NCBI GenBank assembly: GCA_963760095.1
Contig: CAVXBT010000014.1
Coordinates: 64,359-128,358 of the forward strand
Direction: 5' to 3'
Source of the DNA: an uncultured Actinomycetota bacterium
GTDB taxonomy: Bacteria > Actinomycetota > Actinomycetes > Mycobacteriales > Mycobacteriaceae
Length of the DNA: 64,000 nt
Shown piece by piece: positions 44,713 to 53,910 of this stretch (positions within the stretch are counted from its first letter, which is position 1; the number at the start of each line of letters is the position of its first letter). Under the pieces are notes generated by a model. It was given only the letters and a program-made list of their open reading frames with translations. It was not told where the DNA came from and made no database searches. The position numbers and the translations under genes were made by a program.

Positions 44713-46563
<1,851 letters not shown>

Positions 46564-46705: not shown

Positions 46706-47095
46706 CTAGTTCGTGGCCGGGACGATCCGCACCGGGATGTCGGTGTTTTCGTCGGTGTAGTAGCTCGCGCACACGCGGTGGTAGCCGTCGGCGATCTGCA
46801 GTGCCACGCCAGTGTTGAGGTCACCGCGCACGGCCAGGATGGGGGACAGCGGCCTGCCCTTCTTGATCTTCTTCAGATCCGCCAACACGTGCGGGTTGTC
46901 GGCAGGCAGCAGCGCCAAGCTCGATGCCCGCAGCAGATCCTTGGCCTTTTTGTGCACGATCGGGGCTTTCTTCAGCGCTGCCACGATTTCATCGATTTGT
47001 GCAGCCGTCGCGAGCAGGGCGAGATAGTCCGCGGCCGCCGGATAGTCATGCTCGTCCGGTGCTTCGCCCCATAGCACCCCGCTGCCACTAGCCAT
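46706..47095 (-). CDS. Small stand-alone ParB/Srx-like domain protein
   Basis: 129 aa; LSPILAVRG...LQIADGYHRVCA matches the ParB/sulfiredoxin DGxHR motif. No HTH. Confidence 0.7.
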   Translation of the reverse strand: MASGSGVLWGEAPDEHDYPAAADYLALLATAAQIDEIVAALKKAPIVHKKAKDLLRASSLALLPADNPHVLADLKKIKKGRPLSPILAVRGDLNTGVALQIADGYHRVCASYYTDENTDIPVRIVPATN

Positions 47096-47546
47096 CGCGA
47101 CCACCCTTCTCAGCACGTCTACGCCGGGCATCCATTAGCCACATTGATATCAAATGCCGGAAAAGCGTTGTCGTTATCTGAACGGTTGGCGACGAGGCCG
47201 TGGTCACTTCGGGCTTCGGTCGGCGGGGTTCCGCACGCTTCTGCCGCCGCTTTCGAGGTGCATGAGCCCTAGCCGCTCCACTCGGCGGTACTGCCGGCTT
47301 GGCTGCGGGCGCAGCGCCGACAACTCCTCTTCCTTCCCGCTGCGCACAACATTGCTAGGGCAGGCGAACGACCGAGGGATCTTGATTACCTGCCAATGCG
47401 AACCCTGGCGTCCCGTTCGTGGGGAGTGTGCGCCCCACAATCGTTGTGTTGACCCTTCGATTGGAAGTCGGGTAGTTCACTACGCATGCGGCCCTGCGGT
47501 CGATGTTTTTACGGTCGAGGCACCGCAACACAATCAGGAGGGTCCA

Positions 47547-48386
47547 ATGACCGTTGTGCAGGAGAAGCGGCCAGTCAAAACCGCCAAGCAAGAGCAGGAC
47601 TGGAGCCATGTTCGTGGCTACGGCTGGCGACCGCAGCTGCCGGACGCCCGGGACAGGGTCTATGCGCCGAGGCTCGAGAGCCTGCCCCCCGAGTACGACT
47701 TGCGGCCGTCCATGCCGCCGGTCTACGACCAGGGCCAGCTCGGATCGTGCACCGGAAATGCGATCGCCGGAGCGATGGAATACGAGCGCGATCGCCAGGG
47801 GTTGTCCGATTTCGTTCCGTCGCGGTTGTTCATCTACTACAACGAACGCGCACTGGAAGGCACCGTGTCCAACGACGCCGGTGCCGCGATCCGCGACGGC
47901 ATCAAGGTTGTCAACACCGGGGGCGTCTGCCCGGAGACGCTGTGGCCGTACAACATCGGGATGTTCACGGTGAAGCCGCCGCAGCGCTGCTACGTCGCCG
48001 CGAAGAAGGATACGGCGGTTCAGTACGAGGCGATCCAGACGCTGGGCGACCTCAAAGACGCGATCGCGTCCAATCTCTCGGTCGTGTTCGGGTTCACCGT
48101 GCACCAGAGCTTCGAATCGCAGGCCGTCGCCCAGACGGGCGTGATGCCGTTGCCTACGCCCGGTGATGCCGTGGTCGGCGGCCATGCAGTTCTCGCAGTG
48201 GGTTACTCGGATCCCAAGGGTCAGCTCATCGTTCGCAACTCGTGGGGAGCCTCGTGGGGTGACCACGGCTACTTCTACATGCCTTACCAGTATGTGACCG
48301 GGTCCAAGCTGAGCGTTGATAGCTCACCGATCGATCACGTGCACTTGGCCAGCGACTTCTGGGCGATCCAGATGGTTTCGTCGTAG
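47547..48386 (+). CDS. C1 family papain-like cysteine protease, no signal peptide
   Basis: YDQGQLGSCTGNA (Gln, Cys), GGHAVLAVGY (His), VRNSWG (Asn). RBS AGGAGG upstream. Confidence 0.92.
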   Translation: MTVVQEKRPVKTAKQEQDWSHVRGYGWRPQLPDARDRVYAPRLESLPPEYDLRPSMPPVYDQGQLGSCTGNAIAGAMEYERDRQGLSDFVPSRLFIYYNERALEGTVSNDAGAAIRDGIKVVNTGGVCPETLWPYNIGMFTVKPPQRCYVAAKKDTAVQYEAIQTLGDLKDAIASNLSVVFGFTVHQSFESQAVAQTGVMPLPTPGDAVVGGHAVLAVGYSDPKGQLIVRNSWGASWGDHGYFYMPYQYVTGSKLSVDSSPIDHVHLASDFWAIQMVSS

Positions 48387-48418
48387 CCGATAACCCGACA
48401 GCGGAATTCCGCGGTGAG

Positions 48419-48454
48419 TACTGCTATCCGGAACATTGAACCGGAATAGCAGTA
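48419..48454 (+). terminator. Hairpin downstream of the C1 protease (terminator or operator)
   Basis: TACTGCTATCCGG-aacattgaa-CCGGAATAGCAGTA, stem with one bulge. Preceded by the perfect palindrome GCGGAATTCCGC at 48401-48412. Confidence 0.55.
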
Positions 48455-48690
48455 GCATCGCTGGTCGTGGGCACTCGGTCCCGGCTAGCGATGTATACGC
48501 GGCCTGCATCAAGCTTGAAGCCATCGACCGGGAGGGAATGGCGATGGTGATTCGCCGCGGCCGTGATCACTAAATGGTCATTCCCCCAACGGGACCCGCG
48601 TAGTGCGCTACGGATGCGCAGCGGTGTCGACGAGGTCCATCCTTCGGGGGTGTCTCACTGTAAGCACCCGCTGTCGCCAGGCCGTCGACG

Positions 48691-50187
48691 GTGACCGCCG
48701 TGCCTCCGCCCGGGCCAGGGCGCCGATCCCTGGTCAGCCCGATCGTGATGGGCGCGACCGTCGAACACCTTGTGCACACCGACCCGCAGGATCGACGTGC
48801 GGTGCTGGTCGAGCTTCGGCTGGACGCGGGCGTGAGGCCGGCCGCGGCTCGCCGCGGCTTCCTCGCACTGTTCACGGAGGTGTTCGGGAACGCGGGTCCA
48901 CCGCGACCGGTGCCCATCGCGCGACGTTACATGCGGTGCATGCTCACTCCCGACGAGATCACTCAGTTGCTGCGCGGAGGCGACTCGGCGACCCAGGCCG
49001 GAGCTCAACGCGCCCGTGGACTCATCTTTCACGTGTGGCCGGACCTGATCCTGCGCGCCCACATCGACCGCTCCATCAGCACCATCAAGGCCGACGCCGC
49101 CGCTCGTACGTTCCGCTGCGGCGGTGACGGCGTGGTGTGGGCAGTGATCGATTCGGGTGTTGACGCCAGCCACCCGCACTTCACCGCGCACCGCACGCTG
49201 TCGGTGCCGGGGGTCGCGAAACTGCACCGCGATTTCACGATCCCGTCGTCCCCGGACGCCAAGCCGTCCCCGCTCACCGACGCCTACGGGCACGGCACCC
49301 ACGTCGCCGGGATCATCGCCGGCGAGGCGCCGCCGGACGCCACGAGGCTGCGGATCGCCCACAATGAACCGACCATTCAGGACCTACCGCAGTGGGAGCT
49401 GCGCACGCTAGCGCAGGGCAGCACCTTGTCCGGCATGGCGCCGACGGCCGGCCTGGTCAGCCTCAAGGTCCTCGACGACAACGGCAACACGCAGTCGAGC
49501 GTGGTGATCCAGGCGATCGATTACGTCCGCACCGTCAACGCGGACGGCCGCGACCTGCAAATTCACGGCGTCAACCTGTCCCTCGGCTGTCCCTGGCCGC
49601 CGGGCGAGTACGCGGCAGGGCAAAGCCCGCTGTGCCGCGAATTGGACCTGCTGACCGGTACCGGCGTGGTAGCGGTCGTCAGTGCCGGAAACGAGGGCGC
49701 AGGCGGAACCCTGGAGGGCCCGTCCGCGGACGTGCGCGGGCAGTTGTCGACGATCACCGACCCCGGAAACGCGGCCACCGCCATCACCGTCGGATCTGTG
49801 CACCGCTACCGGCCGCACACCTACGGAGTGAGCTTCGACTCGTCGAAGGGGCCCACGCTGGACGGGCGCCTCAAGCCGGAACTGGTGGCGCCCGGTGAAG
49901 CCATCACCTCGGCCGCCACCGGGCAACTGGCCGCTGTTCCGCCGCTGGCACCCGCCGCGGGCGACCCTTCGAACGTGGCCCGCTACATCGAAGATAGCGG
50001 CACCTCGATGTCGGCGGCCCACGTTTCGGGGGCGATCGCTGCGTTCTTGTCGGTCCGCAGCGAGTACATCGGGCAGCCGGCGATGGTCAAGAAACTGTTG
50101 TGCGACTCCGCGACAGACCTGGGACGACACGAGTTCTACCAGGGTTCCGGCTTGATCGACCTGCTGCGGGCCCTGTCCAACACCTAG
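48691..50187 (+). CDS. S8 subtilisin-like serine protease with N-terminal prodomain, no signal peptide
   Basis: VIDSGV (Asp), HGTHVAG (His), SAGNEG (oxyanion Asn), GTSMSA (Ser), SSKGPTLDGRLKPELVAPG. Confidence 0.93.
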   Translation: MTAVPPPGPGRRSLVSPIVMGATVEHLVHTDPQDRRAVLVELRLDAGVRPAAARRGFLALFTEVFGNAGPPRPVPIARRYMRCMLTPDEITQLLRGGDSATQAGAQRARGLIFHVWPDLILRAHIDRSISTIKADAAARTFRCGGDGVVWAVIDSGVDASHPHFTAHRTLSVPGVAKLHRDFTIPSSPDAKPSPLTDAYGHGTHVAGIIAGEAPPDATRLRIAHNEPTIQDLPQWELRTLAQGSTLSGMAPTAGLVSLKVLDDNGNTQSSVVIQAIDYVRTVNADGRDLQIHGVNLSLGCPWPPGEYAAGQSPLCRELDLLTGTGVVAVVSAGNEGAGGTLEGPSADVRGQLSTITDPGNAATAITVGSVHRYRPHTYGVSFDSSKGPTLDGRLKPELVAPGEAITSAATGQLAAVPPLAPAAGDPSNVARYIEDSGTSMSAAHVSGAIAAFLSVRSEYIGQPAMVKKLLCDSATDLGRHEFYQGSGLIDLLRALSNT

Positions 50188-50197
50188 CCGCGAGGGG

Positions 50198-51478
50198 ATG
50201 AGGATCGTGACCGACTTCAACGGATTGACCTACTACGAGGTCGATTTCAACTCCGACGGCACACTCGACACCGCTGGCGGCGCGGGCGACGGCGGACTGC
50301 CGGCGGCGGTGGCCGCCGGCGGCATCAACGATCTGTTCGTGTTCTCACACGGCTGGAACAGCGGGGTGGATTCCGCGCGCGACCTCTATCAGGCGATGTT
50401 CGGGCTGCTGGCCAACCAGCTCGGCGGACATCTGTCGAGCAGTGCCGCGGTGGGGATCATCTGGCCCTCGCTGCTGTTTCCCGACGACGACCCCGACACC
50501 GCACCGCCGGTGCCGTCGACCGGCGCGCAGTTGGCCGCTGCGCTCACACCGGCCTTCCCGGGCCAGCAGCAGCAGCTGGCCACCATGGGTCAGTTGCTCG
50601 ACCAGCAACCCCAAGACCCGGTCAAACTGACCCAGTTCCATCAGCTCGCGGCCGGATTGGTGACCACACCGGCCCAAGGTGTCGAAGACACCGGCGAGGC
50701 GGCCCTGCTCACCGCCGACACCGCGACGGCATTCGGGCACGCGGCGGCCATGGCGCCACACGCCCCAAGCGGCGCGCAGGGCATCGGCAACCCGTTCACC
50801 GGGTTGTGGAGCGGCGCGCGTGAGGTGCTGCGCACCCTGAGTTACTACGAAATGAAGAACCGGGCCGGCGTGATCGGCCAGAGCGGCCTCGGCCCACTGC
50901 TCGCCGGCCTCACTGGGCCAGGCGGCCCACCGCGAATCCACCTGATGGGTCACAGTTTCGGGGCCCGGCTGGTCTCTTACTCCCTGGCGGGTCTGCGCGC
51001 CGATCAGACCGGCGCGGCCAGCCCGGTCAAATCGCTCACCCTGATCCAGGGCGCGTTTTCCCACTTCACTTTCGCCTCGTCCCTGATGTTCGATCCGTCC
51101 CGGGCGGGTGGGCTGGCGGGCGCCGGCAGCCGGGTCGACGGGCCCTTGCTGGCCACGTTCAGCAGCGCCGACCGGGCGTGCGGGTGGTGGTATCCGACGG
51201 CGAGCATGCTCGCCGGTCAGGACAGCGAATCCGCCACCGACCTGGTGTTTCGGTGGGGCGCGATGGGCCACGACGGGTACCAGCAGACCCCGACGCCTGC
51301 CACGGTGCTGCTGCAACCGCAGGGAAAGCCGTACAGCTTCGGGTCCGGCAACTTTTACGACCTGGATGCCAACGCGGTCATCTGCACCAACCAGTCCCCC
51401 ATCAGTGGGGCGCACAGTGACATCCGCCACCCAGAAGTGCTCTGGGCCGTCGTCGCCGCTGCGGGGCTCAGCACCTGA
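50198..51478 (+). CDS. Alpha/beta hydrolase (lipase/esterase-like), no signal peptide, coupled to the S8 protease
   Basis: FSHGWN oxyanion motif, GHSFG nucleophile elbow, FSSAD, GAHSDI. 10-bp gap with GAGGGG RBS after the S8 stop. Confidence 0.85.
   Translation: MRIVTDFNGLTYYEVDFNSDGTLDTAGGAGDGGLPAAVAAGGINDLFVFSHGWNSGVDSARDLYQAMFGLLANQLGGHLSSSAAVGIIWPSLLFPDDDPDTAPPVPSTGAQLAAALTPAFPGQQQQLATMGQLLDQQPQDPVKLTQFHQLAAGLVTTPAQGVEDTGEAALLTADTATAFGHAAAMAPHAPSGAQGIGNPFTGLWSGAREVLRTLSYYEMKNRAGVIGQSGLGPLLAGLTGPGGPPRIHLMGHSFGARLVSYSLAGLRADQTGAASPVKSLTLIQGAFSHFTFASSLMFDPSRAGGLAGAGSRVDGPLLATFSSADRACGWWYPTASMLAGQDSESATDLVFRWGAMGHDGYQQTPTPATVLLQPQGKPYSFGSGNFYDLDANAVICTNQSPISGAHSDIRHPEVLWAVVAAAGLST

Positions 51479-51607: not shown

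Positions 51608-53910
<2,303 letters not shown>

Follow-up and report, generated by a model that had tools for sequence, protein, structure and literature searches.

We analyzed a 64,000-nucleotide stretch of DNA, referred to here as the window, from an uncultured Actinomycetota bacterium of the Mycobacteriaceae (GenBank assembly GCA_963760095.1, contig CAVXBT010000014.1, positions 64,359 to 128,358 of the forward strand). Between leuA and ask, the window carries four genes, which an initial annotation made from the sequence alone had described as encoding a small ParB/Srx-like protein, a papain-like C1 protease, an S8 protease and an alpha/beta-hydrolase. All four genes are present as claimed. 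The annotation had also proposed that they form an undescribed four-gene defense island in which a protease controls a toxic effector. Our analysis points to a smaller unit: the S8 gene followed by the hydrolase gene is a conserved, mobile two-gene unit, and the two genes co-evolve. We consider it fairly probable that this S8-hydrolase operon is a horizontally moving cassette, consisting of a protease and a latent effector, that inserted at a variable site between leuA and ask.

The S8 subtilase and the alpha/beta-hydrolase

The two genes of the pair lie on the same strand (coordinates here and below are those of the window):

48691-50187, plus strand: cytoplasmic S8 subtilase (Pfam S8, 2.2e-42), with a possible alternative start at ATG 48748
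50198-51478, plus strand: lipase-like alpha/beta-hydrolase of 426 amino acids with the triad S253/D325/H406, assigned from the alignment, an AlphaFold2 (AF2) model and Foldseek

The motifs of the S8 triad, D163/H201/S446, were conserved in 52 S8 orthologues. Ahead of the catalytic domain lies a conserved N-terminal region of ~125 amino acids, the pattern of which recalls an I9 propeptide; it matched nothing in Pfam (E <= 1) or in a PDB profile search (E <= 10). Of the prodomain proposed earlier, we therefore keep the conserved N-terminal region with its I9-like pattern and leave its identity as a prodomain unverified. The defense role suggested for the island found no echo in PADLOC beyond the S8 catalytic domain: the hydrolase, the C1 protease and the small protein were unmatched, and S8 matched 'subtilase' (PDLC03014, 1.9e-47, catalytic part only) and IetS. 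As the number of PDLC03014 is close to that of the 'caspase' model, this model may, as a guess, belong with the gasdermin-associated proteases. We rejected two more specific identities for the S8 protein. Identification as IetS was set aside given an NCBIfam score of 33.9 bits against a cut-off of 900 and a PADLOC IetS match (E 8e-14) that covered part of the catalytic domain. A mycosin of type VII secretion was likewise discarded, as TIGR03921 scored 82.3 bits against a cut-off of 278.75, no hydrophobic segments were found in the protein, and the flanking genes are leuA and ask; a mycosin would carry a signal peptide and a C-terminal transmembrane anchor and be encoded in an ESX locus.

The hydrolase start lies 10 bp past the S8 stop. 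The protein had no match in Pfam, NCBIfam or PADLOC; taken together, the scans of this protein and of the small ParB/Srx protein gave either nothing or spurious matches (for example, Cupin_6). Across 1.8 billion cluster representatives, a profile search retrieved 4035 relatives, typically 430-460 amino acids long. In an alignment of 29 sequences reaching down to 28% identity, HGW51-53, GHSFG251-255, D325 and H406 were invariant. The AF2 model, with a predicted local distance difference test score (pLDDT) of 85, has an alternating strand/helix topology. Its Foldseek matches were lipases and phospholipases only, all weak. When the hydrolase alignment was used as a profile against the PDB, only noise and marginal pancreatic-lipase matches came back. 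The full catalytic motifs claimed for the three enzymes were borne out, being present in C1, conserved in S8 and invariant in the hydrolase. The claimed absence of signal peptides also held, in that a crude Kyte-Doolittle hydropathy check detected no N-terminal hydrophobic stretch or transmembrane segment in any of the four proteins.

The AF2 model further predicted two low-confidence loops, at residues ~95-108 and ~186-198, which bracket a helical insert (~109-185). Just after this insert come a long helix resembling a lid (199-236) and the nucleophile strand. In the family alignment, indels are most frequent in these same two loops, and the nearly invariant G195 falls in the second of them.

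Seven members of the hydrolase family (P0065, P0070, P0089, P0104, P0108, P0113 and P0114) carry the NCBI label 'serine/threonine protein kinase'. Because a kinase domain is undetectable in these proteins, the name looks like a propagated misannotation, which the assignment made here corrects. A weak DUF900 match was seen in one fused relative.

Conservation, mobility and partner exchange

To follow the pair across genomes, we mapped the proteins of the window onto 78 loci encoding a hydrolase relative, taking one genome per species. The S8 gene was directly upstream of the hydrolase gene in ~72 of the 78 loci, and the pair loci span Mycobacterium, Mycolicibacter, Mycobacteroides, Rhodococcus, Streptosporangiaceae, Micromonosporaceae and Actinomycetospora. 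The median gap between the two genes was 19 bp. In an even sample of the family, comprising 401 species genomes, the hydrolase was encoded by 18 (4.5%), and 18 of the 20 other hydrolase loci in this sample had S8 immediately upstream. The two genes co-evolve, as the S8 and hydrolase distance matrices are correlated (Mantel r 0.92, p 0.001).

The pair is also mobile. Its location between leuA and ask was confined to about ten closely related metagenome-assembled genomes (MAGs) from soil, and the genes within two positions on either side of the pair fell into 136 families, nearly all of them singletons. Since the flanking families vary, the pair appears to move as a self-contained cassette. Plasmid annotations from Burkholderia, Rhizobium johnstonii (pRL11) and Rhodococcus oxybenzonivorans (pRB98) show the S8-to-hydrolase order, and protease coupling was seen in six of seven plasmid contexts examined, the exception being Rhodococcus pNit, which gave no clear outcome. 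A separate observation concerns copy number: one 9.7-Mb genome of the family carries three separate S8-hydrolase pairs on a single contig (G359:C2), at 119140-121408, 383854-386131 and 1082109-1084839.

In some proteins the two partners are joined in a single chain. We identified hydrolase-S8 fusions (P0263 and P0302) as well as fusions of the hydrolase with CHAT, a caspase-like protease (P0320, P0333, P0350 and P0378). Caspase-like partners (CHAT, C25 and C14) accompany only the more distant members of the hydrolase family, some of them in the same genus. At one such locus (L017), a CHAT protease gene lies immediately upstream of the hydrolase, and at another (L018) a CHAT protease is nearby. 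Plasmids showed the orders hydrolase-C25-CHAT in Nostoc, hydrolase-CHAT in Planktothrix and hydrolase-C25 in Sinorhizobium. At L014:9629-15131 (G060:C2), a Peptidase_C14 caspase with DUF308 membrane repeats is followed by S8 and then by the hydrolase, a three-gene row that may act as a two-protease cascade ahead of the hydrolase. One further fusion, P0390 (818 amino acids), joins Endonuclease_NS to the hydrolase, which suggests either a double-effector protein or a regulatory role of the hydrolase domain.

The rule that emerges is an S8 or caspase-like protease together with a hydrolase of this family, adjacent or fused. The idea that a protease gates an effector is therefore retained for S8 plus hydrolase, on the strength of adjacency, co-evolution, fusions and partner swaps, and is not supported for the ParB/Srx and C1 proteins. 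The neighborhoods of homologues revealed co-occurrence of S8 with the hydrolase, but neither consistent co-occurrence of all four genes nor defense-island enrichment.

Candidate mechanism and competing readings

Latent effectors that are switched on by proteases are increasingly recognized as a common principle of bacterial immunity and cell death. We propose that the hydrolase would be made as a latent lipase-like enzyme, that is, as a zymogen. Upon a stress or infection signal, the cytoplasmic S8 protease would cut it at exposed loops, with the loops at ~95-108 and ~186-198 that flank the helical insert as candidate sites by analogy. Cutting would expose the Ser253-Asp325-His406 active site, and the activated hydrolase would then attack an ester, with membrane lipids or other acyl lipids as the likeliest substrate and growth arrest or death as the putative outcome.

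Related arrangements have been described. Caspase domains in VMAP conflict systems always occur with an adjoining alpha/beta-hydrolase gene; joint action of the two was proposed, and the hydrolase was read as a lipid-directed effector (Kaur, Burroughs, Iyer and Aravind, eLife 2020, PMC7159879). A later study listed alpha/beta-hydrolases with the effectors most abundantly linked to proteases and described them as widely distributed in Actinobacteria and Pseudomonadota (Evans et al., bioRxiv November 2025, PMC12642450). In Lysobacter capsici AZ78, LcCaspase cuts LcHydrolase at two R|G sites, and the resulting N- and C-terminal fragments are together lethal to E. coli, making LcHydrolase a doubly cleaved zymogen death effector; its substrate is unknown, and HHpred places it closest to lipases and oligopeptidases (PMC12642450). 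The word 'undescribed' in the initial annotation can thus no longer stand, as the coupling of a caspase with an alpha/beta-hydrolase was predicted in 2020 (PMC7159879) and a protease-activated hydrolase zymogen was shown in 2025 (PMC12642450).

The window pair fits this known design as what would be a subtilase-gated, sensor-less variant. Like LcHydrolase, which HHpred places nearest to lipases, the window hydrolase resembles lipases, though its structural matches are weak, and can be divided, in its predicted structure, into an N-terminal part, a putatively removable middle and a C-terminal part starting at the lid region; moreover, its family includes members paired or fused with caspase-like CHAT, C25 or C14 proteases. 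Unlike LcCaspase, however, the window protease is an S8 subtilase outside the caspase superfamily, so its cuts would not be expected at R|G motifs. At 426 amino acids, the window hydrolase is ~130 longer than LcHydrolase (~297), to which it is likened by description and not by sequence.

Other systems share single features with the pair. In the vWA-MoxR/VMAP and GAP1 systems, a protease also co-occurs obligatorily with a neighboring alpha/beta-hydrolase, but those pairs lie in multi-gene systems dependent on nucleoside triphosphates (MoxR, vWA, VMAP, STAND), whereas the window pair is free-standing and no MoxR/vWA/VMAP-type system genes were recurrent among the neighbor families of the pair loci. 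Nuclease zymogens of the metallo-beta-lactamase (MBL) fold, a sister effector, have trypsin-, caspase- and S8-associated clades (PMC12642450, Fig. 1B). They resemble the hydrolase family in that one effector family is served by interchangeable protease types, although the effector is an MBL-fold DNase and not an alpha/beta-hydrolase. In gasdermin-protease pairs (bacterial bGSDM; fungal HET-Q1/HET-Q2 with an S8 protease), proteolysis frees an autoinhibited killer. Such pairs likewise place a cytoplasmic protease in a cell-death module, but no gasdermin is present here, and the putative effector is an enzyme instead of a pore former. In IetAS, which Gao and co-workers are said to have described in 2020, a cytoplasmic subtilase reportedly belongs to a defense module. 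That system, however, consists of IetS (~750-850 amino acids) beside the AAA ATPase IetA, and no IetA/ATPase gene is present in the leuA-ask gap.

The sole tested alpha/beta-hydrolase example is paired with a caspase. The window pair adds a case in which the same hydrolase family appears to rely on a cytoplasmic subtilase. This minimal two-gene form, which has no recognizable sensor, is scattered in mycobacteria (~4.5% of family species) and also occurs on proteobacterial plasmids.

Several observations weigh against a protease-activated suicide or defense enzyme. Foldseek backing for the term 'lipase' is weak (best E 0.03, template modeling score <= 0.25), and the window hydrolase may belong to a different alpha/beta-hydrolase lineage from LcHydrolase. 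Pfam revealed no recognizable sensor domain in S8, unlike the published modules, whose proteases are attached or linked to sensors such as STAND, WD40 or VMAP. The neighborhoods of the pair consist mostly of metabolic Pfam families and show no defense-island enrichment; when 124 cluster representatives out of the 136 neighbor clusters were scanned with PADLOC, a scattered handful matched. No homologue was found in a viral contig collection, which gave one marginal partial match only. Finally, the hydrolase is constant while its partners (S8, CHAT, C25, nuclease) vary, so it could be a regulator and not the effector. Given this non-defense-like context, phage defense is one possible role, and a stress-triggered or developmental role in cell death is equally possible.

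The metabolic character of the neighborhoods also agrees with an alternative to which we assign a modest chance, namely that the pair belongs to a regulated lipid-processing or oxylipin pathway and serves neither suicide nor defense. Here the hydrolase would be a fatty-acid-releasing lipase, perhaps matured by S8; an alpha-dioxygenase and a catalase-related heme protein would act on the fatty acids, a LuxR/LAL protein would control the set, and the window would hold the lipase/protease half. Genes for these three proteins, a LuxR/LAL regulator (an AAA_16 STAND-type ATPase with a GerE helix-turn-helix), an alpha-dioxygenase homologue and a catalase-like protein, recur beside the pair in ~21-27 of the 78 loci and in at least six gene orders; a LuxR/LAL regulator adjoins it in about a third of related loci. 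The loci with the three-gene linkage to the pair are:

L029:2434-8230; also L034, L035, L038, L098, L049, L053, L054, L056 and L062
further loci: L078, L044, L051, L093, L059, L069, L077, L066 and L095

The neighbor annotated as An_peroxidase ('animal haem peroxidase') is homologous over its full length to plant fatty-acid alpha-dioxygenases (4kvj, E 4e-119; 4hhr, E 2e-116). The catalase-like neighbor, of ~363 amino acids, has weak similarity to the catalase distal-heme region (E 5e-3 to 9e-5) and no match to solved mini-catalases. Together with LuxR/LAL, these two proteins may make up an oxylipin-type gene set. The dioxygenase homologue was present in 9 of 18 hydrolase-bearing genomes versus 37 of 383 others (odds ratio 9.4, Fisher p 4e-5, not corrected for phylogeny); its distance from the pair was at most 1 kb in two hydrolase-bearing genomes and at most 12 kb in another two. 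Among relatives of the window's clade, four (L031, L094, L100 and L104) have the order C1, LuxR/LAL, S8, hydrolase. This linkage to dioxygenase and LAL genes suggests that the hydrolase releases fatty acids, and its recurrence is a testable lead toward an acyl-lipid substrate. More speculatively, it suggests that the module is connected, at least in certain hosts, with a STAND-type transcription regulator and with an enzyme that forms oxylipins.

An oxylipin pathway nevertheless accounts poorly for other parts of the data. The window pair has no LuxR/LAL or dioxygenase gene beside it, the single dioxygenase homologue in its genome lies on a different contig, and a search of the C1-S8 gap of the window for LuxR remnants found none. 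Dioxygenase and LAL genes are also missing from most pair loci, and the pairings and fusions with CHAT/C25 and Endonuclease_NS are left unexplained. The pathway overlaps with the zymogen model, moreover, since a lipid-releasing effector is compatible with both. On the Nostoc plasmid, the 'peroxidase family protein' beside hydrolase-C25-CHAT proved to be related to the mycobacterial alpha-dioxygenase homologue only remotely, at the superfamily level, and was not counted as independent support for the dioxygenase link.

A more specific combination of the two ideas, with a rather slim chance of being correct, is a protease-licensed lipase that feeds a bacterial oxylipin branch, running from the regulator through protease and lipase to a free fatty acid, a 2-hydroperoxide and a further product. 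If true, it would be the prokaryotic equivalent of the lipid-mediator cascades that run from lipase to dioxygenase in the immunity of plants and animals, and it would name the substrate class of protease-activated alpha/beta-hydrolase effectors. Plant fatty-acid alpha-dioxygenase is pathogen-induced.

The constancy of the hydrolase next to S8, CHAT, C25/C14 and Endonuclease_NS raises the further idea that the roles are reversed, with the hydrolase-fold protein as a constant sensor or regulator (for example, of a small-molecule signal) that switches on the protease or nuclease as effector. The variable element is often the effector in conflict systems, and S8 has no sensor domain of its own. 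We nonetheless regard such a reversal as improbable. In the one tested relative of the design, it is the hydrolase fragments that are toxic and the protease that activates (PMC12642450); the triad and oxyanion motif are invariant, as expected of an enzyme effector; and flexible, indel-rich loops suit a protease substrate.

The leuA-ask gap and the other two genes

The remaining features of the gap and its flanks are:

44713-46530, minus strand: leuA, 2-isopropylmalate synthase (Pfam HMGL-like 1.7e-77, IPMS_D2, LeuA_dimer); backbone flank, outside the module
46706-47095, minus strand (141-codon open reading frame to 47131): ParB/Srx-fold protein, 129 amino acids from M13 (homologue lengths, AF2 and Foldseek)
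47096-47546, no strand: divergent intergenic region between the ParB/Srx gene and C1, ~450 bp, with slightly lower G+C (composition profile)
47547-48386, plus strand: cytoplasmic C1 (papain-family) cysteine protease, 279 amino acids (Pfam Peptidase_C1, PF00112, 52.8 bits against a cut-off of 20.7)
51608-52873, plus strand: ask, aspartokinase (Pfam AA_kinase 7.7e-55 plus ACT domains); backbone flank, followed by asd

The C1 translation contains the motifs QGQLGSC, GGHAV and RNSWG, which hold the papain Gln/Cys/His/Asn residues. Its longest open reading frame, from 47154, is over-extended: alignments of homologues begin at M132, and both the homologues and the JGI gene calls in relatives (279-280 amino acids) support a start at 47547. 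Two arrangements of C1 around the pair were seen. Homologues 77-81% identical to it lie upstream of S8 and only in the leuA-ask clade, and a Mycolicibacter type (25-31% identical) lies downstream of the hydrolase. In Mycolicibacter, C1 is followed by a gene for a chagasin-family (I42) inhibitor (L093:11511-12534, L051:9908-10934 and G429:C1:1140394-1141080). Given this adjoining gene, the Mycolicibacter C1 looks like part of a separate C1-inhibitor cassette; no chagasin-type C1 inhibitor was found in the window or in its genome.

For the small protein, we retrieved more than 3600 homologues, mostly of 129 amino acids, which makes M13, at 47095, the probable start. It had no Pfam match, including ParBc, no PADLOC match, and either none or only spurious matches in NCBIfam. 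A ParB/Srx fold is supported by its AF2 model (pLDDT 88.6), for which the top 30 Foldseek matches were sulfiredoxin, KorB, Osa, Noc and ParB (probabilities <= 0.99, E-values of 8e-3 and weaker), and by an invariant ADGYHR motif of the DGxHR type. This gene is a resident upstream neighbor of leuA and lies outside the module: it adjoins leuA in relatives with or without the island, related MAGs show the order DUF4185, ParB/Srx gene, leuA, and several relatives have a leuA-ask gap of just 600-730 bp, with room for the ParB/Srx gene alone. On a Planktothrix plasmid (L113:4060-9280), a gene for a protein with a ParB N-terminal domain is divergent from the hydrolase-CHAT pair; it is probably a plasmid partition gene, though it echoes the ParB/Srx neighbor in the window.

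These distributions bear on the four-gene, protease-gated defense island of the initial annotation, perhaps with a C1-S8 cascade, which we now judge very improbable. C1 is rare (10 of the 401 family genomes) yet stands beside the pair in both arrangements described above, one relative (L014) has a C14 caspase upstream of S8-hydrolase, and C1 and the hydrolase co-occur in genomes with a Fisher p of 0.0075 that rests on three genomes. On the other hand, C1 is missing from ~68 of the 78 pair loci. Seven of nine other C1-bearing genomes have no hydrolase, and an eighth (G131) carries C1 and the hydrolase on different contigs. The two closest relatives of the window (L022 and L037) have kept ParB/Srx, S8 and the hydrolase and lost C1. 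The Mycolicibacter C1 brings its own chagasin, suggesting a self-contained cassette. ParB/Srx stays by leuA regardless of the island, and in G017 it is on a different contig from the S8-hydrolase pair. We therefore treat C1 as a facultative neighbor, for which a functional tie to the S8-hydrolase pair is possible but weak.

The gap itself is a variable hot spot in the window's genus. From leuA start to ask start, it measures 5.08 kb in the window; in 30 same-genus relatives, the spacing ranges from 296 bp, with the two genes directly divergent, up to ~14 kb. In M. tuberculosis too, leuA and ask are directly divergent neighbors, as the initial annotation stated. The cargo differs among relatives and includes DUF4185, glyoxalase, SDR, peptidase A4, LuxR, C1 and S8-hydrolase. 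In the window, the left boundary of the variable insert is the region 47096-47546, in which a search for a promoter consensus found none; a promoter and terminator scan of the whole island gave nothing beyond shuffled expectation. This variability, together with other peptidases in the gap of relatives (such as Peptidase_A4 in L104), could recall unrelated or exported degradative enzymes for scavenging or envelope remodeling that are merely co-located, but this is scarcely credible in view of the S8-hydrolase coupling across phyla, the single-chain fusions, the strict adjacency, the lack of detected signal peptides or transmembrane segments, and the mycosin score of 82 bits against a cut-off of 279. 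The Peptidase_A4 (eqolisin-type) gene of this close relative (L104:1542-2465) lies beside C1 and LuxR/LAL and is unusual for a mycobacterium.

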